Shown one piece after another: positions 9,330 to 54,815 of a stretch of 54,815 nucleotides of DNA. The notes under the pieces were generated by a model, which was not told the DNA's origin, made no database searches, and worked only from the letters and a program-made list of their open reading frames with translations. The stretch lies in the NCBI GenBank assembly GCA_003568945.1, contig BDIP01000003.1, forward strand, positions 1 through 54,815. Reading direction: 5' to 3'. The stretch is from Kipferlia bialata. Its lineage: Eukaryota. A program made the translations under genes and the position numbers. Every line of letters begins with the position of its first letter. The stretch's first letter is position 1.

Positions 9330-9374
<45 letters not shown>

Positions 9375-9397
9375 GTATATACATACCCTACCCCCAG

Positions 9398-12300: not shown

Positions 12301-14091
12301 GGTTGATGCTCACCCCCAGGCCGTTATCGATGACCCCTGGGCTGTGATCCCCCCTGCCACCACCACTGCTCCAGCTGTGCAGCCAGTTGTTCAGGCACCA
12401 GTGCAGGCACCTGCCCAGGTATATATATACATATATGTCTCCACACTATATTTATACATGGGTCAGTTAGTAGTACAGCCAGCAGTGCAGGCACCTGCAC
12501 AGGTATTAATGATAACTGTACATTGGGGTACACTGTAGATGTTACAGGATATGTCTCTTTTCCATGCATACCTATACTGCACAGCCAGTAGTGCCTCACC
12601 CCCAGGACATGATGCACGACATGGGCATGGGTATATATTCATATGTAGTTGTAGGATATTTACTATATGCACCACACTCACCACAGGACATGATGCACGA
12701 CATGGGCATGGGAGGGGCACCACCCCAGCAGCAGCAGGTGCATTAGTATATATATGTACATGTATATATGTATGTAGTATTTGTATTAGTGTATATATTC
12801 ATAGGATGCCTCACCCGCCGGGCTGGAGTCAGGACCCATGGCAGCATCAATATATATAGTATATATGTGAATGAACGAGTCTATATATACATGCATATAT
12901 AGTATGTTTGACCTCTGACCCTCAGGGCTGGAGCCAGGACCCATGGCAGCAGCAGGCACCGGTGCAGACACAGCCACAGGTCCAGGTACTACTGCATGTA
13001 TTAATGGTAGTGTAGATATATATGTATCTTATATGTCTTGGAAGCCACCGGCACAGCCACAGCCACAGGTTCAGGTGTAGATATATAATGTACAGTGTAT
13101 GTGTATGCCTGTAACCCTCCCCCTCACCCCCCAGTCCCAGTGGGACCAGAGTGGCATGTGGCAGGGACCACAGGACACCAGGTATATATATCTAATATGT
13201 AAAGACATAAAGTATATTCCTGATACTTTTCTTTATGTGTTAATACTCTGTATAGTTGAAGTGGCAGGGACCACAGGACACAAGGTATTGATATCGTTAT
13301 GTACATATATATGTATATATGTTTGTACTCTGTCTGTTTGCCTCTCTCCCTCTCACATTAGGGGTCCAGCCCCCATGGCCATTTCCACCGCACCCAGATA
13401 CAGGCCACAGGCTCAGGTATGTAACAGATTCTGTATTGTGATACTACTAATTCTCTGCATGTATCACAACCACATTTCCCACACGTCAGATTTTCTCTTT
13501 CCTCTCTCTCTCTGATTATATATATATATATACGTCTTATTGTTAGGTCAACCACATGGGTTCTGCCCTCAAGGCCGGTCTCTCCCTCTCTCTCTCTTTA
13601 TATATATATATATCTATATATATCTATATATATCCTTACATCTCTCTTACTATCAGGTCAACCACATGGGTTCTGCCCTCAAGGCCGGTCTCTCTCTCTC
13701 TCTCTCTCCCTCTCTGCCTCTCTCCCTCTATATATACCTCACCCCCTAGGTCAACCACATGGGCTCTGCCCTCAAGGCCGGTCTGCTGGCTGGGTCCATG
13801 CAGGAGGGCGAGTCAGACCAGGTATATATATACAGTGTGTTTTGTATACTATATATACGTAGTGTATACTCACTCCAGGACCGTCTGCTGCGTGAGAGGG
13901 CCTCTCTCGAGGACTACAAGATGAGGTTCCTGAAGAGAGTGACTAAGCAGAAGGAGAAGGAGAAGGTATATACATATGTATGTATATATATATATATATT
14001 GAGAGAGAGAGAGAGGTTCCTCAAGAGAGTGACTAAGCAGAAGGAGAAGGAGAAGGTATTTCTATTAGCCCCCCCCCCCCTCCACCACATG

Positions 14092-14135
<44 letters not shown>

Positions 14136-16907
14136 TCTAGGCCATGAAGGAGGCCCAGGCTGCCCAGATGGCCATGGCACAGGGACAGCCAGAGCAGGTA
14201 CATTCATATATATATATATATTAGTAAATATACACATATATATTTATTAGTGTGTTATATATATAGTGTGTGTTTGCCCAGATGGCCATGGCACAGGGAC
14301 AGCCAGAGCAGGTGGTTTACACTATTTATATGTATATATACATACAAATAGTATATACTTCTATTGTATATATATATATCTAAATACTGACCCCAGCCCA
14401 AGAAGGAGTCCAAGAAGGAGCCGGATGATGCAGCCAAGTACACGGAGGACAGGTAGGGATATATGTATTGGTGTTGGTGCATACCCAGATATGTAGAGTC
14501 CACGTGTATTCTCACGCTGAGGATTCACCAGCAGGTGCAGAATATGGTTGTCTATATCTAGTATCTCTCTCTATAGTGAAGTCTATATATCTGTAGTATA
14601 TATCTTTATAAAATGTATTGTTACTTCTTATGTGTAGGATGCACCACCAGGTGCAGAAGATGGTTGTGTATGTCAAGTATATGTCTCTATAGTATAAGTC
14701 TATATATATGTAGTATATATGTCTATAATGTGTATTGTGTTCTCTTATATCTAGGATGCACCAGCAGGTGCAGAAGATGGTTGTCTAGTGCATACATCTC
14801 TCTATATTATATATATACATACTACTACTAACTCTATGAGTGTATTATTACTTCTTATATCTAGGATGCACCAGCAGGTGCAGAAGATGGTTGTGTATGG
14901 CCTGAGGCACCTGATGAGGGATGGAAGGGTGTCCGATGACCTCATCGACCAGTCCTACCTGCAGACCAAGCTGGGCAAGCACATCTTCAAGGTATTATAT
15001 ACATATGTATACTATTAGTGTACATTACTTATATTTACTCTAGAGTGTCTNNNNNNNNNNNNNNNNNNNNNNNNNNNNNNNNNNNNNNNNNNNNNNNNNN
15101 NNNNNNNNNNNNNNNNNNNNNNNNNNNNNNNNNNNNNNNNNNNNNNNNNNNNNNNNNNNNNNNNNNNNNNNNNNNNNNNNNNNNNNNNNNNNNNNNNNNN
15201 NNNNNNNNNNNNNNNNNNNNNNNNNNNNNNNNNNNNNNNNNNNNNNNNNNNNNNNNNNNNNNNNNNNNNNNNNNNNNNNNNNNNNNNNNNNNNNNNNNNN
15301 NNNNNNNNNNNNNNNNNNNNNNNNNNNNNNNNNNNNNNNNNNNNNNNNNNNNNNNNNNNNNNNNNNNNNNNNNNNNNNNNNNNNNNNNNNNNNNNNNNNN
15401 NNNNNNNNNNNNNNNNNNNNNNNNNNNNNNNNNNNNNNNNNNNNNNNNNNNNNNNNNNNNNNNNNNNNNNNNNNNNNNNNNNNNNNNNNNNNNNNNNNNN
15501 NNNNNNNNNNNNNNNNNNNNNNNNNNNNNNNNNNNNNNNNNNNNNNNNNNNNNNNNNNNNNNNNNNNNNNNNNNNNNNNNNNNNNNNNNNNNNNNNNNNN
15601 NNNNNNNNNNNNNNNNNNNNNNNNNNNNNNNNNNNNNNNNNNNNNNNNNNNNNNNNNNNNNNNNNNNNNNNNNNNNNNNNNNNNNNNNNNNNNNNNNNNN
15701 NNNNNNNNNNNNNNNNNNNNNNNNNNNNNNNNNNNNNNNNNNNNNNNNNNNNNNNNNNNNNNNNNNNNNNNNNNNNNNNNNNNNNNNNNNNNNNNNNNNN
15801 NNNNNNNNNNNNNNNNNNNNNNNNNNNNNNNNNNNNNNNNNNNNNNNNNNNNNNNNNNNNNNNNNNNNNNNNNNNNNNNNNNNNNNNNNNNNNNNNNNNN
15901 NNNNNNNNNNNNNNNNNNNNNNNNNNNNNNNNNNNNNNNNNNNNNNNNNNNNNNNNNNNNNNNNNNNNNNNNNNNNNNNNNNNNNNNNNNNNNTGAGGAA
16001 GGGACTGTTATCAATCTATCTAGTAGTATATATACATAGATACATTATCTATTGTATATAGTGACAGTGAGGCAATGTACATAGCCAAGTATGTCAGGTG
16101 AGGCAGAGACTGTTATTTGTATTGATATATATATATTTTATATATCTATGATTATTGTATGATATATAGTGGCAGTGAGGCAATGTACATCGCCAAGTAT
16201 GTCAGGTGAGGCAGAGACAGTGTTTAGATGTACATAGGGTTATGATGAAAGGTGAATATGAGTATACATGTTTATGCAGGGTCCTTTGCATTCAATCCAT
16301 TCATATGATCAATGTCATATATATAATAAATTAGCCTCTCACCCCAGGGACTGTACCAACAAGGACCCAGCCAAGAGGCCACAGGCTGTGGAGGGTGAGT
16401 GTATATTGTATGTATATATATTCAGGCTAAGTAGTCACATTATTCCCATGTATACATGGAATGCTACACTGCTTGTTTGAATTTACCCATCCGTCACCAG
16501 AGCCCTCTACCCGTGATACGTGTATATACTACTATTCCTACTAGTGTCCTTCTTACCCCAGAGCCCTCTGCCGGTGAGGGCCAGGAGAGGGATTTATATA
16601 CCTATACAGTACTATATACATGTACTACTATTACTACTAGTGTCTTACTTACCCCAGAGCCCTCTGCCGGTGAGGGCCAGGAGAGGGTGGGGGAGGCCGA
16701 GGAGGACCCAGCAAACTTCGCAGGTAGAGATACCTACATATATTTACATGTAAATCTAGTATTCTCTAGAGTTTATATATACGCGTTGTATATTATATAC
16801 TATACCAATGGTATAATACCATTGTCTGTGTGTGTTGTGTCTGCTAGTATGGGACTGACACCAACCCTGCAGGATATGTGGACGAGGGAGACGCCGACGA
16901 CTGGTGA
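9398..16907 (+). CDS. Multi-exon Q/P/A-rich low-complexity protein with C-terminal SRI-like domain (5' end missing, spans N gap)
   Basis: More than 20 short in-phase exons (PVDEATLLAAERE..., MAVVKEEPVVIEE, DRLLRERASLEDYKMRF..., MHQQVQKMVVYGLRHLMRDGRVSDDLIDQSYLQTKLGKHIFK, EAMYIAKYVRDC...). Ends GYVDEGDADDW*. Confidence 0.6.
15051..15993. other. Assembly gap (N run)
   Basis: Run of n characters. Confidence 1.
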
Positions 16908-17272
16908 TACCTATCCAAGTATAGGGGCCCTCTCTTAAGAGAGGTGACCATGGACACTGTAGAATCACTAAATGTAAAAGGCATACTTGTTTAATCGTTT
17001 AATTGGAAGCGAGACATGCCATCATAGTAGTATGCAGTGCATAACACCAAAACAGATCCACATCACTAGCAGTGCGCTGAGTAACAAAGACAGATCGATG
17101 TAAGTGCCGGATATATGTGCCAGTGGCACACTGTGCCGCACAGTGCCACCAACGTTTTTGTCCAAATCGGTCTCGAACTAAGGGTGTAGCAGCATAATGT
17201 TGGTATCGTGCCTTTTCCATCGGTATCGTTGCTTAGCCGGTCTATATCGCGGCTTTGGCTGCTGTTGTAGTC

Positions 17273-17778
17273 ATGGCGGGTGGTATAGGCGCCGCTGCAC
17301 CCTCTGGGTGTGAAGACTCGGAGATTCAGGGTGTGTTTAGGGATGCTATGCCCAACCACCCTGTTTTCCAGGCCCTTGTAGGGGGTGCTGATGTGGATAC
17401 GGTGCTGGCTGCAGCCAAGGGTGCTGTGCTTCCCTTTGGGATGGGTGTTGTGCATGCTGCCACTGTGTGTGGGAGGAGAGACGTCCTCGAGGCGGTGGTG
17501 AGGGTACAGCCCCTCTGCCTCCTCTCTGTTGTCTCTCTCCCCCTCCCCCTTGGTGATGTGCTCCCTCTGCACTTGGCATGTATGGGTACATCCAGTACAG
17601 AGGGTGTCTCTGAGGGTGTTGTGGGGTGGATACTGGATGAGATGGAGAGGGTGTGGGGGGAGAGAGAGTGTGTCAGGCAGCGGGTGCTCTCCATGTCCTA
17701 TGGAGTGAGTCCCTTTTACCTGGCATGTGCCAGTGGGGCAGAGGGTGTGTGTCACGTGTGCTTGGACAGGATGCTCAG
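17273..17778 (+). CDS. Ankyrin-repeat-like first exon
   Basis: GMGVVHAATVCGRRDVLEAVV, DVLPLHLACMG, GVSPFYLACASGAEGVCHVCL. Donor GTGAGT at 17779. Confidence 0.65.
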
Positions 17779-17993
17779 GTGAGTACATATGGCTATTCAC
17801 TCATTATATAATGTATTGTATATCATGGGTCATACTTCAGAAGGGGGGGGGGGGGGGGGGGGGGTTTTCCCAGGAAATTTTTTTTTTTTTTTCCCCCCCC
17901 CCCCCCCCCCCCTCCAACATCCACCCACCCCCACCCACCCCCTCTCTCTCTCTCTCATTCTCTTTCCCCACATATCTTCTCACTTACCCCCAG

Positions 17994-18181
17994 ATCCATG
18001 ATGGCCAACCTCATCATGTCCCCCAGACTCAGAGACAAGAGACACAAGAAGTGAGTGACAATACTGGTATCATCAACTATATCGCGGTACTCACTAGAGT
18101 ACTGGCACACAAGTACAAATATTAACCTCTCTCTCCATATGTCTATATATATGTGTCTAATCCTAGAGCCGAGAGACTCTT

Positions 18182-18212
<31 letters not shown>

Positions 18213-21200
18213 GGAGACATATTCATGTTAACCTAACCCTAGGGCTGACAGGCTAACGTTCTTGTCTCTATCTTTCTATGGATATGCATATATAGTAGTA
18301 ATAATAATAAGTGTCTCTCACCCTATGGCTGAGAGGCTGAGGGTCTATAACGCACTATATATATCTCTGTACACTGATATACATACTGTTTACCTAACCC
18401 TAGGGCTGAGAGGCTGAGGGTTAAGCAGGGCAGACCACACGTCATCCACTACTTCCACCAGGTACCTTGATCATTAACGAAGTATATCTATATATGCATG
18501 TGGACGCAATACCTGTCCTTCTCTAATCTACCATTATATTCACTGCCACCACAAGAATCGCATCGATCTCATTGCTAATGTCTACTTACCTCTAGGTCAA
18601 TGACCCCTACAGTGCCCTGGCAGTGCAGTGCATACCCACCATACTAGGTATCACAATTGTTAACATGCCAGAGAGTCCATTCACGTAACAGCCTCTTACC
18701 TCCAGCTAGGTATGCTATCTTTGTCGAGTGCCACCTAGTCTCTGCCATAGAGGGAGGGGACCTGCCTGAGCCAGAGCTCTTTGCCAGGCTGGCACTACAC
18801 GATGCCAAGGCCATAGGTATGAATGTGTACCTCACTTTCAAGCATATACGATATGTAGGTTGCATTGTAGACAGGAAGTGGGTATATGATGATTCTGGAC
18901 TGAACCTAGCATGGGTGAGAGACCACTATCCCTGTCAACCGCAGGTTCCCTATGTGTATAACCCTATATGTATATATATATATATGACTCTCACCTTACC
19001 CCCAGCCCCTGGCATGGGCGTGTCCTTCCCCCAGACTGCACAGACACCCACACCTGAGGCAGAGGCAGAAGCACAGCGGAGGTTGGCAGAGGTATATATG
19101 TGTGCGTATGTTTCTTTATGTGAGCATACTAATTTATATATAAGTATGTTCTTTTCCTCTCACTTCAATAGGGCATAGCGAACCCCTTCCTCTTTGCCAC
19201 ATATGTACCATATACAATATACTATATACAGTAGTATATATATATGTATATACACTATACTCCCCCTCATCATATATCATTGGCTTCCCTGTCCTCTTTG
19301 ACTTGATAACTATATAGAGGGACGTGCTTTCCTCTTACTATAGGTCATAGGCGACCCTGTCCTCTTTGCGAGATGTGCATCTGAGTGCACTGCATGGCTG
19401 TGGGATAACAGTGCCACTGTGTCTCTAGCAGAGGCAGAGACAGAAGAGGAGAGAGAGGGAGAGAGAGAGAATGCACAGTTGCTGGTTGAGGAGGGCAATG
19501 CTCTCAGACTGGACATGGGCCACTACTCCAGTGGCATGTTCTACTACGAGGGAGAGTGGTGAGTAGTTAGTATATACGTGACATTACTATTCATAGAGAT
19601 GATGAAACGTGTTGAATTCATCTATGTTGAATTGTTTTGTATGAGTACTGCGTCTCTGACCTGCAGGTACTGGGGCATCTCTGTCGAGTAAGTTATGTAT
19701 GAGTACTGCGTCTCTGACCTGCAGGTACTGGGGCGTGGACAGGATGTACCACCTGGAGCAGAGGCTCATGAAGCTAGGTAGGGACCATTATGAATACATG
19801 TGTATACATAAGTAATTGTTGATTAAGATATAATAACGGACTATAATAACACCAGACCTCGAGAGACATGAGCTGAGGCAGGAGCACCCAGTGGCCAAGA
19901 CTGAGACCAACCCATATGGCTACTCATACCCCAGACCACCCATAGTCAGGGGGAGGGTGGCACATCCAGAGGGTGAGTATCAGCTATACAGCCGTCTATA
20001 TTTGTGTGTGTTTACCGATGTCTGTATATGAGTGTGGTTGCAGGGGGTCAGAACGGTATATATATAGGAAGGAATGACTGGAGTATTCTTGTTTGGGAAT
20101 ACCCACTCCAGGTCTTACCCTTGAGATCTACCCCTCTCTTCGCAGTCCATACACTGCAGTGGGGTTCGACACAGCTGTATCCATCGCCAAGGAGGCAGGT
20201 GAGTTATGCAGTATTTCATGTACCTCATCAGAGTCTCTGATTCAGAGACATCTCTAGGATGCGGAATATTCTGTAATTGACAAGTTATGGTGCCTATGCT
20301 GATCGGTAACCAAAACTGGCACGCCCTTACTCTCAACTGCCACTTGTGACTATGCCTAACTCCCCAGGCATAGCCTATGAGGTCAGACCCGTCCTGCCAA
20401 TGGTCATGAGGGGCATGACCATATCAAGGAACAAGGGCAGGTACTGTTAGCAGAGTAATTGTGTCACATAACTACTAGACTAGTAGTATACTTGTTACAC
20501 TATCATTCACAATAGGTACATCATGCGAGACGCCAAGCGGGAGGCCGATGCACAGGGCATACCCTTTGGCAATATGTATGACCCAGTGGGGAGGCCTGTC
20601 CTGACGGCATTCTCTCTCCTGCCATGGGTGATAAAGCAGGTATTAGTCAACATATCTCAAGATATTGAATGTGTGACACTTAGTGTCTAGGAACCCTTCA
20701 AGTACATTTCTAAATATCCAGGGCAAAGAGGCTGAGTTCATATCTGCCTTCCTCTCTGCAGCCTTTCCCAAGGGCACAAACACTAGGTGAGGGTCCTGTT
20801 CCAATGTTACTGCAAAGGAAAATATACTGGAGGACTGTTTCTATCTACCTTTCACCCTCAGTTCCCTTAAGGGTCTACGCACAGTAGTTGAGGCTGCCGG
20901 TCTGGACTGGGAGGTGGCACAGACACACATCACAGACGCAGAGCTCAAGGTATGAGAACACATATATAGGAGTTGTATCCCGTGTTCTTCATTCTCTATT
21001 ACATACATCTAACTGTAAACTGTTTACTGTCTCGTCACAGGCACAGAGCTCACTGTATGTAAACATATACTCTTTTACTTCCTAAACATCATTCTGATGG
21101 TGTGTTTATGCCTCTAACTCTCCAGCGTGGCCATGCATTGCTAGCAGCCAACAGGGAGTCTATGATCAGTGACCTGGGCCTCTGGGGGGTACCCTCATTC

Positions 21201-23199: not shown

Positions 23200-26100
23200 A
23201 TGCTTCTGGTGTTGGTTGCCCTCCTCGTTGGGGTTTTTGCCCAATGCGGCACCCAGGAAGAGGCGTTGCGAGATCTCTACACGGCTATTGGTGGCTTCAA
23301 GTGGACCCAGGAGAACAACTGGTTGTCTGTAGACCCCTACTGTGACTGGACAGGAGTAGAGTGCAGAGACGGAACCACGTTTGTTACCTCGCTCTCTCTG
23401 CCAAGCTTTGGCTTGATTGGTCAGCTACCAGATGCCCTTGGGTGCTTCCCTTTCCTTCAGGTACAATACATTCAATTGTAGAGAACCCACACTATGTGTG
23501 TTTTTACTCAACAGTGGAATATGACTCTGCATATCCAAACCTCATTCCTACTAACATTTAGTACCTAGACCTCTCCAACAACGACTTGTCCAGTACCATT
23601 CCTACCACCTTAGGAAACATGTACAATCTCAAGGTATGGCTGTGTCATCAAAGATCATAATCAACTCGGGAACTGTATAGTACTCCATAGGTCGGGAATA
23701 ATCTCTGCAATTCTGAAAGAAGGTATCTTTTGTCCTAAAAGTGTTGCTTGCTTCTGTAGTCATCAGATTGTGACGTACACGTCAAACCTCAAGGAAATAG
23801 CAACAACTCCTTTCTACGACTTACAATCTTGTGTATCATCTCATATCACCTCTTACACCAGTCCGTAAACCTCGACTCTGCTGGTCTCATTGGAACGATC
23901 CCAGTCGCTCTCTGCAAGTGTGAGTACCTCCAGATAATCTCAATGGCAGACAACCAATTGACAGGTAGAGTTGTTCTCTATAACAAAACCCAGAGACGAC
24001 TGAATACTCATCGCAACTGATCTTAGTTTGTCATTTCAGGTGTTGTTCTCATATATACATGTGTTAACCTAACCCCAGGTGCAATTCCCTCCTGTGTTGA
24101 TCAGATCACTTACCTTGCGGAGTGGCATACCGAGAGAAACCTGTTGAGCGGCGCCGTTCCTCCTGCATTCGACAACCTCGACTACTTCCAGCTCCTCATG
24201 GTACAGTGCAACCCAGACCTCGAGTGCACGCCTCTCACAAGTAAGTGACACTACTATACAGTAACAGTTTCAGGTGGTTATAGTTGTTGGGTAATATCTG
24301 AACTTAGGTGACATCATGTACTCCTGTGGCACCGACTACCCTGAGTGTGACACCATCGACCCCCCTCTTAGTGAGTGTGAGGAGTGCACAGACCTTGGCG
24401 ATGCATGGTGCCTCAGACTCTACAGTGACAGTGAGTGTGTTCCTAGAGGGTCACTAACCCCTAGTGACTGCAACGCTGTCGTTACTGAGCAGACAGACTG
24501 CGACATCACACTCCCCACTGACTGCTCTGAGTGTCTATTGTTCGAGGACACCATATGGTGCACCTTGCCCGCGGACGACAACGACACGTGTATGCCTCTA
24601 TCCCAGGCTGAGGCATGTGTAGCTGCTGGTGGCATTGCCAACGTTGTGTGTTCACCCCTTCCATGCTGCTCTCTCTGTCTAACCTGGGACGGCTATGCCT
24701 GGTGTGGGACCGAGGGGAATGGATCGTGTAGGTTGGTGTCTGACATCAGTACTGGAGAGTGTGACTATGTCGTTACCACTGCCTCTGATTGTGATGTCGA
24801 TACTGACACCTGCCACGGTTGCACCTCTCTCGATAGTGTCTGGTGCCTCTTGGACGGGGAAGGGGACGTATGCATCAGCGGTAGTGACACACGTCACTGT
24901 GTGGAGAGAGTGTACTCCGGTAGTGAGTGTACTCCTCCACCTGATACCTCATGCCAAGAATGTGCAGCACTTGACGACTACGTGTTCTGCGTTGACGTCT
25001 TCGCACCACCTGGGAGGTGCATGCCTAATTACATTGACATGGATTGCAACAACATCATCTACAGTGGAGACGAGTGTCTCATCGACACTAATGTGGACAC
25101 GTGCGGTCAGTGTCTAGCCTTCGACAACACTGTATGGTGTGTTCTGCCAGACGGTGATTCATGTTACTCCGATGCTTCTATGTGTCGTTATGCTGGAGGG
25201 GTGCCCCACATAGACTGTATCCTGGAGGGGGACTGTCCACGGTGGCTGCAGGGAAGAGTGACCTTTGAGGGAATTGGGGAACCATCTATATCTGTGGAGG
25301 TGCCTGGAGAGACGGAAGCATTCACTGACGAGGTTTGAGGATGTACTTTCCACATACTGTTAAAACCTATATACTAATACCAGGATGGATACTACACAGT
25401 GCCCCTTCTGTTGCCTCATGATGAGCAGACCCACGTATCATACACGTTCCCAGACATTGTCGGTGGAGAGCCGGATTACTTCCCCCAAACTGCCTTTGTG
25501 GATTTGACTCCATGCGGTGTAACGACTGTCAACATTGATCTAGAGCCCTTCACTTGCGGTGACGATTCGAGACTGCTTCAGGGCGTTGTGACTGATGCTG
25601 TCACTGGTGAGGGGATCAGTGGAGTGGACGTGATCCTGGACACACAAGTGTTAGCCACCACAAACCAGGTAAGACACATAGACCCGTGTACTCTCACTCT
25701 ATATATATTAGATTTTCTCGGGAAGTACGTTTACTGACCCTCAGAATGGATTCTACCAAGTGGCAGGCTTGCCTACTGGAGCTCTCTTTGAGTTCCTGTT
25801 CTCTCCGCCCTCTACCTACCTTCCGGACTCTGATCATACCATGCTTGGACTATGTGGCATAACACAGCTCGATATGGTTCTTACCCCTACGTGTGCGACG
25901 CCTGTGCTAGAGGGACGTGTAACGTTTGAAGGAATAGGGGTTGATGGTTGCTTTGTTGATGTTCCTGGAGAGACAGGGACGTACAGTGATGAGGTGAGTG
26001 CCTAGTAATATGTATCAACACAACGTATGACCTCTTTCGGTATTATTATATGTTACCCCAGAACGGGTACTACAGCATGCCTCTCTCGGTGCCCCACCCT

Positions 26101-29100
26101 GGTGAGACCCCTGTATACTTCGACCCCGGCCACTTTGTGGGAGGGGAACCCGAGATCTCAGACCAAATTGTACAGGTTGTCATCGCAGAGTGCAGCACTA
26201 CCGTTGTCAACGTAGCTCTGGAGCCCTTTTCCTGTGGGGATGACCCGAGGGTGTTGCAGGGAGTAGTCTCTGATGATGTTAATGGCGTTGGGGTTGCGGG
26301 GGTTGAGGTCGTTGCTTTTGGGTCGGTCTTAGCAGTCACCGATCAGGTATGGTCTTATATGAATCCACACAAATTGTAGTAGTTTGCGTCTCTGAAGGTC
26401 AAGAGACACTCTGACCCCAGGACGGGTTCTACCAGGTTCCAGGCCTTCCATTTGGATTGGGCTTCGAAGTCCTGTTCTCAACACCGAGTCTCTATGGCGA
26501 TGTGACCATTGATGTCTTTATGAACCTGTGCGGTACCACTGTATACAACGTGTCGCTGGTGAGAGAGTGTGAAGAGCCAGTGCTACAGGGTGTGGTGACG
26601 GATGAAGTAACTGCGCAGGGTATACCTAGTGTGACAGTATGGGTACAAGGAGTGGCAGCAACCTCCACAGATCAGGTATCCATGTACCGTATACATACAA
26701 CATACAGTTCGTAGATTACTGGACACTGGTTATATATATTACCGCTGTGTCGCTTCCACACCAGGACGGTACCTACGAACTATCAGGCCTGTCGTATGGG
26801 ACCCCCTATACAGTGAGGTTCAGTCCCTCAAGCGAGCATGAACCAGCATCTGCCTTCTCTGTTTATGTCGACGAGTGTGGTGTCACCCGCCTAGACATGA
26901 CCCTGACCCCTATATGCGATGATCCAGTACTGGAGGGACGCGTGACATTTGAGGGTGTAGGTTTGGGTGATACTAGTGTCGACGTTCCTGGAGAGAGTGG
27001 CACCACGACTGACCAGGTATGCAACTGATTGGTGTCCTATTACCCTAGACAACACCATATATCGACAACGGCGTACCCTTGCACTCACCCCAGAATGGCT
27101 ACTACAGCATGCCCCTTCTGCAGTCACACCCTGGTCTCACGCCTGTCACATTCACACCCTTGGACCCAGTCGGTGGTGAGCCAGTCGTTGTGGGGGAGAC
27201 AGTCCAAGTCAGTATCGCAAAGTGCGGAGCTACTGTCGTAAACATGGAGCTGGAGCCATTCTCTTGTGGCAACGACCCTAGACTGCTGCAGGGTGTTGTG
27301 ACTGATGCACTCACAGGAGCACCCATTAGTGGGGTGGCTGTTCTGTTTGGGACAAGTGTACTGGCGACAACGGATCAGGTGAGAGGAACTTGACACCTTG
27401 TATTTGCGATAAGCATATTAATAGATAGCTATTGATATCTTCACAAGATGTCCCTAACTCCTAACCCTCAGAGTGGGTTCTACCAGGTTACAGGCCTCCC
27501 GTATGGGTTCCCAGTTACCCTTCGGTTCTCGCCGCCCAGTCTCTACATCTCACAGGACATTGGTGTATCTCTTGGTCTATGTGGTGTGACTCAGCTCAAT
27601 GTGTCCATGGACACGGAATGTGTTGATCCAGTGTTGCAGGGTCGAGTAACCTTTGAGGGTGTTGGATGGCCGGATGTGAGCGTGATTGTCAACGCAGAGT
27701 TCATCGTCTATACCGATCAGGTGAGTGACACTGATAAGTAGAAGTGTAGGTTTGCGTCGTCTCACAACAGAACGGCTACTACAGCCTTCCTCTCTCCCAG
27801 TCACATCCGGGTCTGACACCGGTTTACTTCACCCCCCCAAACCCATTTGGTGGTGATCCTATATTGGCTGAACAGACCGTACATGTCTCCATCGCAGAAT
27901 GTGGCACAACCGAGCTAGACGTGCAACTTGAACGGGAAGCATGCGAACCCCGAGTGCTACAAGGAGTAGTATCTGACGCTCTTACTGGCCAGCCTATCTT
28001 TGGTGTCTCGGTGCTTCTTAACGGACAGCATCGTGCCACCACTAATCAGGTGACTACGGTAATAGGTCTTGTGGTTACTAAATGTTCTTCCTCTTACACC
28101 GTCTACTCTCATTTTAGAACGGATTCTACCAGATTTCTGACCCGAATCCTTTAGTGCCAAACAGTCTCGAGTTCAACCCGCCCAGTCCATATATGTCCAC
28201 AACCCTGGATGTTCCTGTCGAGTCCTGTGGTATCACACAGGTTGACGTGGTCCTATCCGCTGACTGTCCGGCTCCTGTGTTGCAGGGAGTGGTAACTGAC
28301 GCACTCACAGGCGATGGTGTCCCAAGTGTCACGGTGTGGGTACAAGGGGTTGCTGTTACAACCACAGATCAGGTGGGTTGTTATCGTCTTTGTCGGCAAT
28401 CTGAGACTGTGATTGAGTTGTTGGACAATATACATACCACTCATGGATCTCTCCCGAGTCTGGTTTTACTTTAGGACGGAAGCTACCGACTCAACGGCCT
28501 TGTCTCCGGAATACCGTACACCGTCATGTTTAACCCCCCTAGTGCCTATGAGAACGCAGAGTCCCCAGCTATCTACATGAACGAGTGTGGCGTTACACGT
28601 CTAGACATGGTTCTGACTCGTGACTGTGATGATCGTGTGCTAGAAGGACGTGTGACTTTCCAGGAAGTAGGGTGGCCTGATGTACTTGTTGAAGTAACGA
28701 ACGAGGCTCCTGTGTACACAGATTCGGTGAGTATGCAAGAAACATACCATATGTAAGTACACTGACAGTAATCCCACCCATGGGTGTCCACAGTGGGTAA
28801 CTCGAAAGTATTACTGATCCTCACCCCAGAACGGCTACTACAGCATGCCTATTCTGCACGTAGTCGACTTCACATCAATCACATACACACCGATGAACCC
28901 CCTAGGAGGTGAACCTGTGGTCATGGTGACGACCCTCTTCTTCGTGCTCTTGAACGACTGTGGTGTGACTGTCATTGATGTCGAGTTAGAGCCCTTCTCC
29001 TGTGGTGACGATCCACAAGTGCTCCAGGGAGTTGTCTCTGATGCCCTCACTGGCCAAGGGGTGGCAGGAGTGTCAGTGCTGCTCAATGGATTCCAGGCAA

Positions 29101-30006
29101 CCACTACAAACCAGGTATATAGATTCCAAGTCTTCTTGGGACAACTACCAGCAATGTATATGAATGAGACGAACACCCTTACGTCAGATTGGTCACTACC
29201 AGATTACTACTGGCATTCCAAGCACCGTACCGATCACCATCGGATTCCAGCCGCCTAGCCCTTACGTTGCTACCGAGATTACTGATGTGTTTGTCGACAT
29301 TTGTGGCATTACACAGCTAGACGTATCCCTGGCCAGGACTACTGTTGGAGACTGCACCTGTGAGGGGTACCAGTTCGAACTCTATGACGAGACAACAGAG
29401 AGTGCAGAGTGTCAGTACATAGCAGAGGTGCTGTGTGTCTATGGTCCACAGTTGGATGGCAGGTATCATTACACTAAGAAATATAGGATCATGAATATCC
29501 ATCTCATGGAATGCTCTGCTGTGAAATTATCTACTGAGCGCAGGTATCAGGTAGATCTTCAGATCTCAAACCTCTCAAACACCGATCCAGACTGCTGGCT
29601 TCAGCACCTTACTGTTGTTGGTGAGCATGATGTATTCAGCATAGACGGCACGAACCCTGCTTGCACGGACCTCAACCCCATTGACGGCACCAACCCTGAC
29701 TCTCTATTGCTACAGAGGATCAACACACCAGAGCACCAGTTCGGGTTCAAGCTACAGTCAGTGCTGGAGACTAGCCCAGGCTGCATCAGTTCGTTTAGCA
29801 ACACTCCGGAGACAGACACGGTCTCATTCTACTCGACGTCACGTGATGAAACCATTGTCGTGATAATGAAGTCAGGTGGGCTATAATGAGAATTTAATAT
29901 ATTGAATTAACCCGAATACTGTAAAGACTCATGGACACATTTCCTCACTCCAGACACGTACGAGTTCACGTCTTTCTTCACCTTGGGGTGCGAGACGCTC
30001 GAGTAA
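23200..30006 (+). CDS. Secreted Giardia cyst-wall-protein (CWP)-like LRR protein extended by 6 Cys-rich repeats and 12 CarboxypepD_reg-like beta-sandwich repeats
   Basis: Signal peptide MLLVLVALLVGVFA. CWP-like core: ALRDLY..GG.KW..NNWLS..YCDWTGVEC, LGCFPFLQ, DSAGLIGTIP, MADNQLTGAIPSCV, QCNPDLEC, YSCGT. CxxC...WC repeats at 24360-25230. LqGvVtD.tg.gi.gV.V...tTdq/.GyY repeats at 25240-29340. Last exon DTYEFTSFFTLGCETLE*. Confidence 0.85.
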
Positions 30007-43764: not shown

Positions 43765-43867
43765 TTACTGGAGGTAGTTGTTGAGCCAGCCAATGACCTG
43801 CTCGTGCCACACCACAGACTCCTGGGGGGCATACACCCAGTGGGACATCTGGACAGTGAGGGATGGG

Positions 43868-43904
<37 letters not shown>

Positions 43905-44640
43905 TGTGTACACCCAGTGGGACATCTGGACAGTGAGGGATATGTTACAGAGAGAGAGAGAGAGAGAGAGAGTGGGCCAAGAAGACGTACCGTGGGGAAC
44001 CTCACGAACTTGGACTCGATTCCAAGCCACTGGGCTGTCTGGAAGGCAGAGATGCCGTGCCTGGGGTCAGAAATCCACATCTGAAACCACGTATAGACAT
44101 ATATGCGTACATCTGTTATATACATATACCGTACCACTGGTGGATGCGGTAGTAGCCACTGTGGATAGGAGATGTATATAATTATACATTGCCATATTCA
44201 TGTATATATATACTATACTGTATATTAATATATACTACAATACAAATACCGTACCACTGGTGGATGCGGTAGTCGTGGCCACCGTGGATGACAAGGATGG
44301 GGGTGACCCAGTCACCTGGGGTAAGAAATGGGATATAGTAATAACCCTACTAGAATGCTAGAATATATATATACATATTCTACGTATACATTAATAGTGG
44401 ATCACAAGGATGGGGGTGACCCAGTTACCTGGGGTGAATCCATATACACTATTAATAGTATACACATAACACCCAGGGTAAGTGACTAAGGATAGTCATA
44501 TTAGTTACACTATTATATATATATATAAATTATGTATTAGATATATAGTACACAGTACCGTACCGGCGTGCTGGGCAGGGGACCAGGGCAGGATCTTGTT
44601 GTCTCTGATCTGGGGGTCCAGGACAGAGCCGCCGAACTCC
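43765..44640 (-). CDS. S9C peptidase (dipeptidyl-peptidase 5 / alanyl dipeptidyl peptidase-like) C-terminal fragment, 4 exons
   Basis: EFGG...WSPAQHAGDWVTPILVIHGGHDYRI (catalytic Asp)...GISAFQTAQWLGIESKFVRFPTMSHWV (catalytic His)...WHEQVIGWLNNYLQ*. The nucleophile GxSxGG exon is absent. Confidence 0.8.
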
Positions 44641-44671
44641 CTAGAATAAGACAAAGAAGAGAGAGAGAGAT

Positions 44672-44725
<54 letters not shown>

Positions 44726-44862
44726 TGACATGCCTGTTCCAGGTGCGAAAGAAATATATGTATATATATATAGAGAGAGAGAGAGAGATACACTCATACC
44801 TGTTCCAGGTGGTGCGAAAGAGAGAAAGAAATATATATATATATATATATATATACTCATAC

Positions 44863-45379
44863 CTGTTCCAGGTGGTGCGACCTGAGCCACGGTGGTAGAA
44901 GAATGGCTGGGGGTAAGAATTAGGGCTGCACACAGAGAGACACAGAGAGAGAGGTGGTAAAAGAATGACTGAAGATGAGGTATTAATGGTACATACAGAG
45001 ATATAGAGAGAGACAGGTGGTAGAAGAATGGCTGGGGGTAAGAGAGTAAGGATGTAGCAGACAGACAGAGAGAGAGAGAGAGAGCAAGGTGGCAGTGGAA
45101 GAAACACTTTGCGTGTACAAGGAGAGAGAGAGACAGAGAGAGAGGGTGACTGAGAGAGAGAGTGTGTGCACTAGTCGTCGTACCGTCTGAGTCTCTGAGT
45201 CTTTGAGCTCGGCACAAGTATATTTGTATTACACTTCAAATACATATATATATGTATACAGAGCCCGGCATAATATGTCTTGTACTTCATACGTATATAT
45301 CTGTACTCAGAGAGAGAGAGAGAGTCGTACCTTTTGAGTCTTTGAATCCACAGCCCGCTTCCATCCTGATAGTGAGACA

Positions 45380-46015: not shown

Positions 46016-46184
46016 ACTGCCTTATATCTAGGCATATATATCGTTGTGCATGTGAGTAGGTGGGGATGAGTTTACCACTAACCCCCCCCCCCCTCCCCCC
46101 TCCCTTTGTCAGTCCTAATACCTATTCAATCTTTACTGTGCTCTCTTTCTCTCCCTGCTCTTCCCCCCTCTCCTTCTAACCCAG

Positions 46185-47044
46185 GGCATCATCCAGCCAC
46201 TTCTGATGGACGAGATCAAGATATTCGGTATGTTAATCAATGTCGGGAGGAGTTTGTATTGTATTTGACCCTCACATCTCTTATCCACCTCCCTGTATTC
46301 CCAACTCCACCTTTTACTATACATACTGGCCTACTATAATATATACTCACATACCTACTCTTATATATTCTCATACCCTGGTGATTGTGTGTCTCCAGCG
46401 TCCTCTCTCCACGTACATTCTCTCTCTCTCTCTCTACCCCCCCCATTCTGTTATGTTTCTCTCTACCTACTCAAAGGCACTGCCTCAAAGCGGGATATCT
46501 ATACGGCCTATTCCTCCCTCTATACTCTCTCCCTTACTCATTGGTGCCGCCTCTCAGTGGTCCTTCCTGATTTCTCTCTCTGCTTTCTCTCTCCCCTCCC
46601 TTACTCGTAAGGGGTCTTTCTTCTACTCTCTCTCTCTCTCTCTCTATCTCTTCCTTACATCAAGGCGCTGCCTCTCAGTGGTCCTTCCTGTACTCTCTGC
46701 CCCATGCCATTGGAATGGCATTCATGCTGCTTAGGCCAATTAAGGACAAGGTATATACTATATGTACGCTATACATATAGACATGTATACACACATATAT
46801 ATATGTGTATTGGAATGACATTCATGCTACTGAGGCCTATCAAGGACAATGTATACCTTTTGACTCTAGTGTACGTCTTAGTCTCTATCTACTACCCTGC
46901 AGTCCTCTGACAACTCTATCCCTCTCTCTATCTCCCTCTCTCTCCCCCCCCTCTCTCTCTCTATATATATAATTACATATATGTATGTTTATTCAGCCCA
47001 GTCCTTCAACCTCTCTCTGGGATGACCTTAGAGACCATCTCTCG

Positions 47045-47077
<33 letters not shown>

Positions 47078-48446
47078 CACATATATGTATGTATACTCAC
47101 CCCAGTCCTTCAACACGTCTCTCTGGGATGACCTCAAGGAGTTCAAGTGGCCAATTCTACTAGGTAAATACCTGTATATATATATGTATTCTATACATTC
47201 ACTGTGCATGGTATCTGTGTGTTCTCTCTTTTCCTTTGGGATGACCTTATTGTGTACTGCACCATTGTCATATATATATATATAGTATATATGACCTTAT
47301 TGTGTACTTGTTACTCTCTCTAGTATATGTATGAGAGTCTCACCCCAGTCTCCCTGGTCGATGTCTTTGCCAGCACCGTTGTCATTGTCATTGTCATACA
47401 TACTATCTTACATACAATATGTATCTTAAACTCTTTCTACATGAATACATTTGTCTATCTTACTCCCAGTATCTCTTGTCGATGTCTTTGCCAGTACCAT
47501 TGTCATATTCGGACAGCTCATGGTAAGGAGTGTACTCTCTCTCTCTCTCTTTCTTTCTCTCTCTCTCTCTCTCTCTATCTCTCTTACTCTCTCTTTCTCA
47601 CTCTTCCTGTCCACCGTCTCTATGAGAGTATCCTCTTCTAATAGTATCACTATAGTTGTGAATAGCCAGTACCATTGTCATATTCGGACAGCTCATGGTA
47701 TGTAGTGTACTCTCTCTCTCTCTCTTTCTTTCTCTCTCTCTCTCTCTCTCTCTCACTCTCTGTCTATCTTTCTCTCTCTATCTCTCTATCTCTCTTTCTC
47801 ACTTCCTGTCCACCGTCACTTTGATAGTCTCCTCCTATTATAGCATCACTGTATGTGTGTATATTGGTACGCTATGTACTCAATGCAGGTTGGCTCTGCC
47901 ATGTACACCATCATATACTCTCTCTCTCTCTCTCTCTATGTATCAATATATAAAATACCACTCTATATAACCCCAGGTTGGCTCTGCCATGTACACCATC
48001 ATATACTCCCTCTCTCTCTCTCTCTCTATGTATCAATATATATATATACCACTCTATATAACCACAGGTTGGCTCTGCCATGTATACCATCATATACTCC
48101 TCGGTGCCTGTCTGGGCGGCCATTGGATCAAGAGTCCTGGTGGGGAGGAAACTAACCCAGCGTATGTACATGTATACATATATATATATATATGGATATG
48201 GATATAGTATATTATTCGTCGGTCCCTGTCTGGGCTGCCATTGGGTCAAGGGTCCTGGTGGGGAGGAAGCTTACTCAACGTGAGTGTATCTAGTGTATAC
48301 CATGCATACATATGTATATATATGTATGGAGACAGTTTGGTGCCTGTCTGGGCTGCCATTGGCTCTACTAACACAGCGTGAGTGATTCCATATATATCAT
48401 GTTAATGTATATATATATATACATATACCTAACCCCTGAGCAGTGG

Positions 48447-48496
<50 letters not shown>

Positions 48497-51400
48497 ATGC
48501 ATATATATGTATACCTCCTAATATCTAGAGCAGTGGCTGTACATTGGCACTGTGGTGGCAGGTCTGGGCATCAGTGGGGCAGGGGCTCTCAATGAGCCAG
48601 GTACAATAATTACATCTATTAGTGTATGTATTGATAATACTGTTATATATATTCATAGTATAGTACAATAATTGCCTAGTAGGCATCAGTGGCGCAGGGG
48701 CACTCAACGAGCCAGGTATATATATATATATAGATGTATGTATATGTATGAATCTAATATAGTATATACAATCAATAATAGTAAGAGGACATATATCACC
48801 TATAGCACATGTAGTATCAGTGGCGCAGGGCACTCAATGAACCATGTATTCACTCATCTATGTGTATCTATAGTATATGTAACAGTAATGTATATATATA
48901 GTGTAGTATCAATTTGCCAGGTACATGTATATATATATAATTGCGTGCTTACCCATTCTGTATGGCAGGTGGAGATATACCATAAAGTATACGGAGGCTA
49001 TTTATGTACATGGAATCACATTTACTCTTATGTCCAATAGACGTATGCTTACTCCTTCTCTCTCTTATCATAGGCGACAGGATTGCCACTCTTATGCATG
49101 CTTTGTATCTCGCCTCTCTCTCTCTCTCTATATATATATATATCTCAAACCAGGTGACAGGATGCTGGCCGGCTGCGTTGTGACTCTGATAGGCACCATA
49201 CTGCACTCGGGGATATACTTCATAGCAGAGGCTGTGTTGAGGTATCTATACATAATTATATCATTGTATACAATTATATCGTATCTGTAATACTGTATAT
49301 ATCTGTAATATTCTCTTGAATTCTTAGTGTCCCTGTAACACTCAGGCGACCCGACCAGCGCCCTCTCCACCCTCAACGCTACTGTGGCCTAGTTGGTATG
49401 GCTCTCTCTCTCTCTCTCTCTGAGAGAGAGAGTCTCTCTCTGTCTCTCTCAATCTCTCTTCATTACCGTATATCCGTAGGTATATATATAATCGGAATAG
49501 TACTTACTCCAAGGTCTCTTCGATGTCCTGTCTCTCTCTCTCTCTCTCCATGAATCAAGCTCTATCTTTCCATTGGCAGCCAATATATGACCCCAGGCCT
49601 GTTCGATGTGCTGTGGCTCAGCCTGTATGTCCTCATATACACAGTGCCCAGGTGGCAGGTGAGGATGGTGTACCAATATATAGTATATGTAGTATATATA
49701 CTACAATTTTTATCATATATCATGTACCCATCAGCCTGTATGTCCTCACATACACAGTGGCCAGGTGACAGTTAGGATACTATTTATTGAGACCATTATA
49801 TACTTTCATATAGTGATATATAATATAACTTGCGTGGGTGTCCACTAATCACTAGGAGCTAGTCACCGACCCCATCACTGAGGCAGACTTAGAGACACTA
49901 AATGTATATATATATATATAAGTACTAGTCACCTTGAATTATCACCCTATAGCTCTCTAATGCCTAGGAGCTAGTCACCGACCCCATCACCGAGGCATCC
50001 CTATCATACATATTGCTCTATGTATATATATATATGTATATATGTGTACATCTGTCTCTTACTGCTAGGAGCTAGTGACTGACCCCATCACCGAGGCTGG
50101 CAGTCACTACACGGCCATCTGGTTGCTGTACCTGATGCTGACTGTGGATGACTCAGGTGTATTCTATAGACATATATATATATAAAGGTATATATATAGA
50201 CAGATATATGGTTTGATATAGATACATGGCCATCTGATTGCTGTACCTGATCCTGACTGTCGATGACTCAGGTAGTGCTATACATATGTATGTGTATACC
50301 TATACCTATATAGGCATATATAGGTATATATACATGGTCATCTGGATGCTGTACCTGATGCTGACTGTCGATGACTCAGGTAATTGCATGTATATATATA
50401 GAGAGAGGGATATATAGTATAGATACGGGCCAGTCTCATGCTTCGACCATAGATTCAGAGCGATAATCATATAATATTTTCCCAATTGTTTTTATTAATC
50501 ATTATTGTAATCATATAATATTCTTCTTATATTAGTGTGTATGCCCTCCCCCTCGCCATATGTATATATCCTTACATCGGCGTACCCTCTCTCTTTCTAA
50601 ACCATGTTGGTGTTCTCTCTCCCTCTCCCTCTTTATAGTGTGTTCCTCTAATGCCAGTCCACTCTGGCTCCTTCTACCCCATGCTGGGTGTTCTTTGTCT
50701 CATTCTCTCTCTCCCTCTCTCTCTATATATGTGTGTGTATACCTCATATCAGTCCACTCTGGCTCCTTCTACCCCATGCTGGGTGTGGTTGGGTCAGTCT
50801 CCATGGCAGTGTTCAAGACAGTGGCTAGTGGTACGTATTACTCTATATACTATATATATATATATATATGAATATATATATAGAGAGAGAGAGAGACTGG
50901 TCCATGGCAGTGTTCAAGACAGTGGCTAGTGGTACGTATTACTATATGTAATCATATATTAATTGATATATAGAGTCGGAGAGAAGAGGTGTATTGTGGT
51001 TGGGTCAGTCTCCATGGCGGTGTTCAAGACAGTGGCATCAGGTATACACATGGATATTTATATATAAATAGTATATATAGTATATATTGAGTCAGAGAGA
51101 AGATATATATTGTGGTTGGGTCAGTCTCCATGGCAGTGTTCAAGACAGTCGCATCAGGTATACACCCACATATATACACATATATTCAATATATGTGTGT
51201 GTGTGTGAGAGAGAGAGAGCGAGAGAGAGCGAGAGAGATTGGTCTATGGCAGTGTTCAAGACAGTGGCATCAGGTGAGTATATATATGTAATAATATATA
51301 TGGAGAGAGAGGGAGAGGGAGAGAGAGAGAGAGATGTCCATGGTAGTGTCTGTTCAATACAGTCGCATCAGGTATGTTTCAATACAGGTGTGCGTGTCCC

Positions 51401-52809
51401 TCTGTGTGTTTACGGATATCCTTAAACAGTGTAGGTACTGATACTGACACTGACACTGATAACAGGTTTCTCCCACTTATTCCCTAACATCAGTCGGTGT
51501 GTTCCTGGGCTCTGCTCTCTTCCTCTCTCTCTCTCTCTCTCTCCATATATATACATATACATATACATATATATATATATACACATGTCATACTGACATC
51601 AGTCGGTGTATTTCTGGGTTCTGCTCTGTTCTTCTGCAGCATAGACCAGACAATATCTCTCTCTCTCTCTCTCGCTAACCCTAGTCGGTGTCTTCCTTGG
51701 TTCTGCCCTATTCTTCTGCAGCATAGACCAGACTGAGTGTCTGACTGGGTACAAGATAGCCTCCCTGGTGGTGGTGATTATAGGGGTGGTAGGTACATAA
51801 GCACTGAATATTTACGTATTCAGTATGTATTGTATATGGATAAAAGGTTGCGTCACTGGTGGTGGTGATTGTAGGGGTGGTTGGTACGTAGTCGCTGATA
51901 CGAATATTCATAATATGAATTTACACATCATGTATTATTATTGTCAATATACATTTTCTGTATAGCCTAATCCCAGGCTACTACTCTGTAGTAGATAAAA
52001 TTATTGTAAATACATATACATTGTATATATATGTGTGTGTATGTATACATCTGACCCTCAGGCTACTCTGTCAAGACCGACTCCAGCAGTATATAGATAA
52101 TTATATATTAATATGAGTATTATATGTATTAATAATGTAGGACTTTTCTCTTATAGGCTAACCCTCAGGCTACTCTGTCAAGACCGACTCCATCCACAGA
52201 CTGGCCACACAGGCAGCACTGGCTAGAACAGGTATGATAGATATATGGTATACAATATATATATACACATATATATAGCGTATATAGTGTATATGTGTGT
52301 CCACATCCACCGACTGGCCACACAGGCAGCACTGGCTAGAACAGGTATGATAGATATATAGTATACAATATATATATACACATATATATAGCGTATATAG
52401 TGTATATGTGTGTCTACATCCACCGACTGGCCACACAGGCAGCACTGGCTAGGACAGGTTAGGGGTATTATTGTATCAGTGTATTTACTTGTATTCAAGA
52501 TCTATAATTAGTATTGTGGAGGTATCACGGCTCTCACTTCAGAAGGTGTCTCTGAGCTTGTGAGTGTGAGGGAGAGACACTCCCATTTATGCAACTATAT
52601 ATATGTATATATATGTCATATCAATTTGGTATTCTCTATACATGTTATTGTGTTTGTCTCACCTTCAGAAGATGTCTCTGAGCTTATTATGTATTGCTTA
52701 TCTAGTCATCTCACCTTCAGAGGATGTATCTGAGCTTGTGAGTGTGAGGGAGAGACACTCTCTGCTAGAGGGCGAGGCAACAGAGAGTGAGGAGTGTGAG
52801 GAACTGTAG
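46185..52809 (+). CDS. Drug/metabolite-transporter superfamily (EamA / nucleotide-sugar-transporter-like) membrane protein, 14 or more exons, 5' end not seen
   Basis: Spliced: GIIQPLLMD..VSLVDVFASTIVIFGQLMVGSAMYTIIYSSVPVWAAIGSRVLVGRKLTQQQWLYIGTVVAGLGIS..GCVVTLIGTILHSGIYFIAE..GSVSMAVFKTVASVGVFLGSALFFC..KIASLVVVIIGVVGYS..EECEEL*. Confidence 0.8.
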
Positions 52810-53404: not shown

Positions 53405-53875
53405 TTTCTGACTGAGGTTTTTCATATTGGGTGTGAAAAGGGTGTAGAGTGAGCTGATGTCAGTTGACACTCGAGCCCAGTCTCTCTCCACCACTGGGTG
53501 ATGGGAGTGGATGCGTTGTTCTGCGTGAGGGACCTAACCTGATATATAACCTGACTAATACATGTTCAGTGACTATTAGTATTTTTTGACTTGGTGGTGA
53601 AAGGGTTTAGAGCTCTATTCACTCATTTGACACGCCTATGGACGGTCTCTCTCTCCACCACTGGGTGATGGGAGTGGATGCGTTGTTCTGTGTGAGACCT
53701 AACCTGATAAATACCTGACTAATAGTCACTGACTATTCTTGTATTTTTTGACTTGATGGAGAAAGGGTTTGAGCTCTACTTCTCACTTTGACAGTGTCAA
53801 TGACACCCATGGACGGTCTCTCTTTTCATCTCCACTGGGTGATGGGAGTGGATGCGTTGTTCTGTGTGAGGGACA
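53405..53875 (+). repeat. Three diverged tandem copies of a ~170-bp unit covering upstream region and start of exon 1
   Basis: ccactgggtgatgggagtggatgcgttgttctg occurs at ~53491, ~53657 and ~53832, each preceded by gaaagggt..gag-like sequence. Confidence 0.85.
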
Positions 53876-54815
53876 TACCCAGCACGGGGGACAGGTGTGT
53901 GGCTGCATGTACATGGGTGTCTCGGTAATCGGAGTGAGATTTCGTAACTGTTGTGTGTATATGTACATATACTAACAATAGGGTCTTCCTCAGCACTGGT
54001 AACTGGGCTGCACTGTGGAAGGCACAGCTGCTCTCTGCCACGACCCTGACCAACCTGCATCCTGCTCTGCACCCTGTACTGAAGGAGTGCACAGTAGTAG
54101 TATGTCCAGGTATGTACTCTACCACTATACTATGCCCCACATCTAGTATATATATGTAGCATATACATACACTATATACGCATGTGTATATGTACTGCAC
54201 CCTGTACTGAAGGAGTGCACAGTAGTAGTATGTCCAGGTATGTGTACTATTCTATAGTATATATATGTAGCTTATACATACACTATATACGCATGTGTAT
54301 ATGCACTGCACCCTGTACTGAAGGAGTGCACAGTGGTAGTATGTCCAGGTACAAAGTGTGTATGTATATATATATATATATAGTGTATTTATAGTGTATA
54401 TATAGTGCATATACTATGCCCCACATTGCACCCTGTACCCTGGGACGTAGCTCTCTCTTTCTCTCTATCTCTCCATATTTATCAGAGGCAGTGTATTTAT
54501 GGTAGCCCTTGGCCTCAGCGCATGTATCGACGACATTTCATATTTTGCCTTTTTTTCTCTCTCTCTCCCCCCCCTCTCTCTCTCCCTGTATATAGATTTG
54601 TATACCTATATATACATCAGTATATGTGCTCTAACCCTAGGTCTTAGGGCCCGTATACATAGCATGCCGAGGGAGAGGATACTCTCTCTCTCTCTCAATA
54701 TATATAATCCTATATATGTATGCTAACCCTAGGTCTTAGGGCCCGTATCCATGCTATGCCGAGAGAGAGGATAGCTGCATCATTCAGAGCACTGGCTGGG
54801 ATGTGCAGAAGGCTG
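53809..54815 (+). CDS. Hypothetical protein, 5' part (runs off the window)
   Basis: MDGLSFHLHWVMGVDALFCVRDIPSTGD|RVFLSTGNWAALWKAQLL...ECTVVVCP|GLRARIHAMPRERIAASF..., in phase. Confidence 0.55.

Follow-up and report, generated by a model that had tools for sequence, protein, structure and literature searches.

Intronic copies of exon ends in Kipferlia bialata very probably diverged mostly under protein-level selection and may derive from diverged alleles

Kipferlia bialata is a free-living protist, and to our knowledge sex has not been observed in its group. In the stretch of its genome analysed here, 33 of the 50 introns examined in seven genes contain partial copies of the exons that flank them, which are termed echoes below and amount to 74 segments. 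From the differences between echoes and exons it is very likely that the echoes functioned as exon ends during the greater part of their divergence, with decay setting in only later. Their donor, somewhat more likely than not, was a diverged allele of the same gene, delivered by misaligned recombination between homologous chromosomes. The architecture itself is known from a variable-number tandem repeat (VNTR) in human F7; its novelty here lies in how densely it occurs in unrelated genes and in the signs that the copies diverged while still live.

The window, that is, the whole stretch analysed, comprises positions 1–54,815 of the forward strand of contig BDIP01000003.1 (GCA_003568945.1), and every count refers to these 54.8 kb. 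The echo catalogue consists of ungapped matches of each intron to its two flanking exons in the seven genes. The models of genes A and B were taken from annotated proteins and the exons of genes C–G were set by hand, those of C–F without RNA or annotation. Echoes bearing indels are shortened in the catalogue or missed, six of its segments are internal and possibly represent chance matches or halves of indel-split pieces, and echoes whose exon falls in an N gap or upstream of gene E lie outside it. Assembled reads over gene A were available from two runs (X1 and X2) of one sample, and rare forms are dropped from the contigs of both. X1 is possibly the source data of the window and would then represent a second assembly and no second sample; X2 is a putative RNA run (the RNA type being a guess), record 9 of which is spliced. 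A Pfam scan of eight stretches of the window yielded nothing informative.

The longest and most silent-rich of the 74 echoes lies in gene A (KIPB_000052; protein P0001; 45856–52809, plus strand), which encodes 369 amino acids in 15 exons and carries 33 echo segments in its introns. P0001 resembles EamA and sugar-phosphate transporters (Pfam PF00892 and PF03151) and maps exactly onto the 15 exons, with GT–AG introns throughout. Downstream of its live exon 6 (48068–48161, plus strand; 94 nt), positions 48213–48279 of the same strand repeat the last 67 nt, or final 71%, of the exon together with a GT donor of their own and without an acceptor. The sequence-only reading from which this work started had described this pair accurately: of the 67 positions compared between 48095–48161 and 48213–48279, 10 differ, each at a third codon position and synonymous, just as it listed, and the two 67-nt stretches translate to an identical 22 residues, with no replacement. 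The resulting pS is 10/18.7 = 0.53, compared with 0.21 for the pooled echoes. The same reading had supposed that a dead copy would show mainly non-synonymous changes, and this null is too lenient, because an echo that is dead while its neighbouring exon admits silent changes only is expected to reach pN/pS of about 0.5 with 38–45% of changes silent (kappa 1–10); even so, ten silent changes out of ten remain improbable under this stricter null (p = 6e-5 to 4e-4).

Exon 6 has further echoes. A second donor-side echo (48339–48377, plus strand) has its own GT donor and a 20-nt deletion, and over 12 aligned codons it shows four synonymous differences from exon 6 and six from the first echo. The end of exon 6 is therefore present in three versions that are pairwise synonymous, the Gly and Thr codons each occurring in three states. 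On the acceptor side, two echoes (47889–47920 and 47977–48009, plus strand) have one silent difference and one junction in common. Two haplotypes written in tandem by the assembler are an extremely improbable source of this arrangement. Such an artefact could have been carried over if X1 is the source of the window, in which case an X1 contig excludes mis-joining and not sample effects; however, an independently assembled contig (X1 record 4, 460 nt) spans 48062–48394, with the exon, the intron and both echoes, at 0 other letters, 0 gaps and a depth of 409, which is that of its neighbours (379–457 in the eight long X1 records listed). The wrongly collapsed haplotype that would have undermined the sequence-only reading was thus not seen, and haplotype collapse would not in any case yield at least three versions bearing stops and deletions.

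Every echo in the catalogue derives from a single exon end and in most cases includes the splice site there. None of the 74 is a whole exon, the median coverage being 40% and the maximum the 71% of the focal echo. GT or AG is retained in register in 59 of 74 echoes and has been lost in nine of the 68 that reach an exon end. The echoes sit inside introns that are bounded by the live exons' own sites, and in all ten introns with both kinds the donor echoes precede the acceptor echoes. The unit of about 105 nt comprises part of an exon, one splice site and flanking intron, and is arrayed in tandem at intron ends. Intron length is approximated by 128 nt plus 104 nt per echo (r = 0.91, 50 introns), so that echoes account for most of the intron-length variation in the genes examined; echo-free introns of 52–251 nt occur in the same genes. 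The 40-nt intron flanks are less than 85% alike in 53 of 59 units, with a mean of 64% for unrelated introns, and six of 59 are near-identical (at least 85% alike). A junction is common to within 2 nt in 12 of 19 multi-echo arrays, against 3.2 expected (0 of 5000 simulations), which implies that units are copied whole once formed. No clear age gradient was found along the arrays (0.070 and 0.084 differences per nt at ranks 1 and 2).

Self-comparison of the window located repeats of this type at 2.7–3.2, 9.2–14.9, 16–21, 43.8–45.1 and 46.5–54.8 kb, and only a protein-domain repeat between 21.1 and 43.8 kb. Over 27 bins, the number of echoes is correlated with the density of repeats (rho = 0.89). 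Breaks at microsatellites were considered as the cause of the junctions and found no support, dinucleotide repeats being present at 18 of 59 junctions compared with 23% (p = 0.10). The genes at 21100–43800 have introns nearly without dinucleotide repeats and without echoes, and two gene classes may be distinguished on this basis. Among them, the gene at 23200–29890 contains leucine-rich repeats recognized by eye, a long Cys-rich exon (24295–25335) and internal repeats about 680 and 1030 nt apart in which intron positions recur; a Pfam search with two of its exons gave no match, and its product is possibly a surface protein.

The calculation of dN/dS for echo–exon pairs proposed in the sequence-only reading was carried out on the 74 echoes of this window. 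Pooled over the seven genes, pS is 0.208 and pN 0.032, giving pN/pS of 0.15, and the bias is kept without the focal pair (0.17). Unique differences fall at 102 third, 25 first and 16 second codon positions, and 88 of these 143 nt are silent, well above the share expected of dead copies (p = 7e-9 to 8e-5). Gene A contributes most of the signal, with 54 silent and 25 replacement nucleotides (pN/pS 0.12, p <= 5e-6). The six other genes together show a ratio of 34:30 (p = 0.01–0.07), gene B 20:17 (p = 0.03–0.12) and genes C–G 14:13 (p = 0.10–0.23), where six of the replacement codons come from one old echo of gene F. Changes private to echoes number 23 silent to 19 replacement (p = 5e-4 against neutrality), which is weak alone because serial snapshots of a live exon would also yield private silent states.

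In the units with diverged intron flanks, the flanks are close to the mean of unrelated introns and yet pN is 0.02–0.04, which argues for protection of the coding part during the divergence of the unit. Had such a unit arisen by duplication in cis and been dead from then on, its loss at replacement sites would have matched that on one side of its flank, and it did not. Decay is also visible, in three stop codons among the unique changes, in indels and in several plainly decayed echoes (49731–49771, silent to replacement 0:3, and 19172–19205, 2:6). That the echoes are ordinary dead tandem copies, with selection on the live exon alone producing the silent bias, is very unlikely. Taken by themselves, genes C–G are compatible with this null, as are the several echoes with obvious decay; however, the pooled set and gene A reject it, and dead copies cannot hold pN at 0.03 and branch points in 25 of 26 acceptors while the free positions of the unit differ by a third. 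The pN/pS of 0.15, the branch points and the three synonymous versions of exon 6 support the view that protein-level selection acted on both copies during most of their divergence.

The splice signals have been preserved as well. Among the 26 echo acceptors with a branch motif in the live partner, 25 have kept theirs, in 17 cases at an unchanged offset and in eight at a shifted one, compared with a background of 59 in 607 intronic AGs. At the free positions of the 17 same-offset motifs, 54 of 80 match (p = 1e-4 to 7e-3 under neutral loss); the 34/34 identity at the branch T and A holds by construction and is not counted as evidence. Median donor scores are 9.0 bits for echoes and 8.9 bits for live sites (31 and 50 sites), and acceptors score 8.3 in echoes versus 9.6 in live sites (p = 0.05). 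Splicing of gene A is documented by a 1,409-nt X2 contig, in which five listed pieces fall on exons 3, 6, 8, 11 and 13 with 0 differences, the offset to the 15-exon model is constant and the intervening exons fit by length. As this contig is colinear with the model, the first (outermost) donors and the last acceptors are the ones used. The focal echo is uncovered in the X2 contigs, from which rare forms would be dropped, and the bin depth of 4.5 there is explained by the end of the exon.

It had been suggested as an alternative that the echoes are still in use, through minor splice forms or through programmed DNA rearrangement at the repeats. The donor scores equal to those of live sites, the mostly intact acceptors and the loss of rare forms from contigs are compatible with this suggestion, which we nevertheless hold to be highly improbable. 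No echo supplies a whole exon, and the focal echo begins 118 nt downstream of its exon copy, an offset that puts it out of frame; the spliced contig agrees with the model of 15 exons and gives no cover on the echo, and no repeat-to-repeat deletion of DNA was present among the 15 joints listed of 48, in contigs that drop rare forms. Neither route of present use found support. The absence of whole-exon echoes would follow from selection. The use of outermost sites fits exon definition or 5'-to-3' scanning of the kind reported for intron 7 of F7 (PMC1557585), and nested stepwise splicing is also possible. The K. bialata spliceosome is described as reduced, with 87 of 174 proteins, in PMC6679479.

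Paralogues were then considered as donors. A protein search with the exon returned P0001 and two K. bialata paralogues, P0002 and P0003, with 76–77% identity to the gene A protein. Both read VPIW where exon 6, the focal echo and P0001 read VPVW, and both also differ from P0001 at the exon end. The focal echo thus reads as P0001, which places its origin in the P0001 lineage and rules out P0002 or P0003 as its donor. The sequence-only reading had invoked a divergent allele or a paralogue; capture from a diverged functional copy is indeed the best reading, and these two paralogues are not that copy. Four of the focal differences fall within the range listed for the paralogue contigs. At two of them the echo state is shared with the paralogues, the other two states being outside the listing, and with paralogues this distant four sites are too few to polarise the differences. 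Two sets of X1 and X2 contigs with 12–14 differences over exon 6 fit the two transporter paralogues (46150–52800); their X1 depth is 388–507, which is single-copy-like, and their X2 depths are 80 and 89, versus 35 for the contig of gene A.

Other echoes of gene A (all on the plus strand) carry similar marks. In an array of five donor echoes (50901–51372) derived from exon 50753–50830, the nearest is identical to the exon, and three further echoes scored in full encode Ala-Ser as GCA TCA versus GCT AGT in the exon, a switch of serine codon family. Two acceptor echoes of exon 51685–51792 (within 51494–51651) have intact but unlike branch points and differ from it by 5 + 5 silent changes and one replacement. 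A donor echo at 51837–51883 has two Ile-to-Val states that match P0003, and a later stop codon. Over gene A as a whole, four of 16 informative replacements in echoes match a paralogue residue (chance 4%, p = 0.004, unweighted), and all four equal P0003.

These matches bear on the possibility that the donors were close paralogues or homeologues since lost, whether as segmental duplicates or as a second, hybrid-derived genome, and that ectopic exchange transferred the pieces, so that no large allelic diversity is needed. Lost close paralogues may indeed be compatible donors: gene A has two paralogues at 76–77% identity, four of its echo residues match P0003, and a protein identical to that of gene B is annotated on another contig. 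Against this, the focal echo has P0001 residues and not those of P0002 or P0003, it sits on an unbroken contig with no second identical copy evident in the sample, the three synonymous versions of exon 6 would require several lost copies, and gene G shows the bias with no paralogue found among proteins of 189–602 amino acids. We regard lost paralogues as an unlikely source.

The remaining genes of the window show the same architecture to different degrees. Gene B (9398–14991, plus strand) is Gln/Pro/Ala-rich and contains 25 echo segments with pN/pS of 0.19. Protein P0004 (KIPB_004241), from a different contig of 13,836 nt, matches gene B residue for residue (9679–15015), and both proteins end alike in eight intron-derived residues; the P0004 locus either was duplicated recently or reflects a double assembly of one region. 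P0005, annotated as 'dynein heavy chain' (7841–15015), has a 5' part joined to gene B via a 37-nt exon (9063–9099) and may be a fused gene model. Gene G (KIPB_000042; 1237–3478, plus strand) has three echoes with six unique silent and no replacement differences (p = 0.006). Genes C and F, both hand models (16349–19777, plus strand), have four echoes, those of gene F being heavily decayed (three silent and seven replacement codons); two donor-type copies follow a 943-N gap nearby (16060–16210), and their live exon is probably inside the gap. Gene D (hand model; 43765–44906, minus strand) has five echoes with one silent and one replacement difference, and its C-terminal motifs recall what we take to be the C-terminus of family S9 peptidases. 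Gene E (hand model, truncated at the window end; 53809–54815, plus strand) has four echoes with four silent and one replacement codons. Partial copies of its first exon, one with a start codon, lie uncatalogued upstream of the gene at 53491–53700, which implies that echoes form at the 5' ends of genes too.

The explanation that we prefer, exchange between diverged alleles, may be put in three steps. A rare partial tandem duplication over one splice site would produce the first unit, which would be tolerated because the second splice site is absent. Haplotypes would offer no homology other than exon-derived sequence, their introns being short, rich in repeats and dissimilar, and an echo on one chromosome would then pair with the live exon of another; with exchange inside the exon-derived part, the unit added would combine the old junction with the coding end, splice site and intron flank of the other allele, whereas sister exchange would give near-identical units, of which there are six in 59. 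The captured piece would finally decay, and stops, indels and lost GT or AG are observed. Mismatches are better tolerated by Dmc1 than by Rad51. According to PMC8516963, metamonads have no Ku-type end joining and conserve meiotic genes, and fornicates have lost Rad51A and have two Dmc1 instead.

Gene G, with no paralogue found and the same bias (6:0), is a point for exchange between alleles. Points against it are that the signal comes mostly from gene A and that the echo haplotype is unseen as a whole allele in the one sample, in which no half-depth variants were found in gene A. The pattern needs functional copies about 0.2–0.3 apart at silent sites, a divergence that is very high for one species. 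Exchange between alleles further predicts more damage near the junction, and a deficit of replacements near the splice site was seen as a trend only (14:47 vs 21:32, p = 0.07; second test, p = 0.20). The same weak deficit would also suit a process entirely in cis, in which sister exchange grows the arrays, deletion between direct repeats collapses them, and echoes therefore frequently take over as the exon, those with damage being removed indirectly. The shared junctions and the near-identical units agree with such turnover, and single-strand annealing appears to be available in metamonads in the account of PMC8516963. However, a divergence of 0.3 at free sites would cap the rate of collapse at roughly tenfold that of mutation, a reduction of pN to 0.03 by purging would then need a population mutation rate above even that of the allele model, no collapse joint occurs among the 15 joints listed, and the echoes do contain stops and indels. 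Turnover in cis therefore appears improbable, and less probable than lost paralogues.

Several known systems resemble the echoes in part. In human F7, as described in PMC1557585, a 37-bp VNTR spans the boundary of exon 7 and intron 7. Its tandem units each contain an exon end and a donor, like the echoes that keep GT or AG, and its most upstream donor is used while the pseudo-sites are silent, as only outer sites are used in gene A. In contrast to the identical pseudo-sites of this one locus (PMC1557585), echo units are about 105 nt long, occupy both sides of the intron and occur in 33 of 50 introns, few of their flanks are alike, and they bear the signature of past selection on protein and splice signals. 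Intron gain by segmental tandem duplication likewise involves a short genic tandem duplication removed by splicing (PMC3265369), but there a new intron is made, whereas echoes lengthen existing GT–AG introns. The echoes also look conserved at the protein level, are tandem exon-like copies and show mostly silent differences, features that bring to mind two further systems. Silent gene-conversion cassettes (Borrelia vls, Neisseria pilS and chicken pseudo-V genes) consist of incomplete coding copies that are not expressed themselves and lie close to a gene that is, and mutually exclusive duplicated exons of the Dscam type are whole exons with both splice sites that are used in mRNA. Unlike the cassettes, echoes encode the same peptide as their exon and not variants of it, are spread over unrelated genes and accumulate stops and indels as they decay; unlike Dscam-type exons, none is whole, and the focal echo has no X2 cover in contigs that may miss rare forms.

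Full-text searches, which most subscription papers lie outside, returned no description of such echoes in K. bialata. The main text of the genome report (PMC5874029), supplements excluded, contains no occurrence of 'duplicat', 'heterozyg' or 'ploid', and it gives 124,912 introns for the genome. Practically, echoes can mislead gene prediction and read mapping. The arrays are natural experiments in duplicated splice sites, and the skipping of strong inner sites points to a choice of site anchored on the exon. We hold it close to an even question, and slightly less likely than not, that the introns of Kipferlia archive captured alleles with silent diversity of at least 0.2, whose arrays persist through an exon-defining spliceosome that skips intact inner sites despite the short introns. 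Should the echoes prove to be captured alleles, fossils of this kind are probably very numerous among the introns of the K. bialata assembly, and recombination and population diversity would be readable from a single genome. From this we would infer cryptic sex and high diversity, and the introns would document past recombination, in the manner of fossils, for a group without observed sex.
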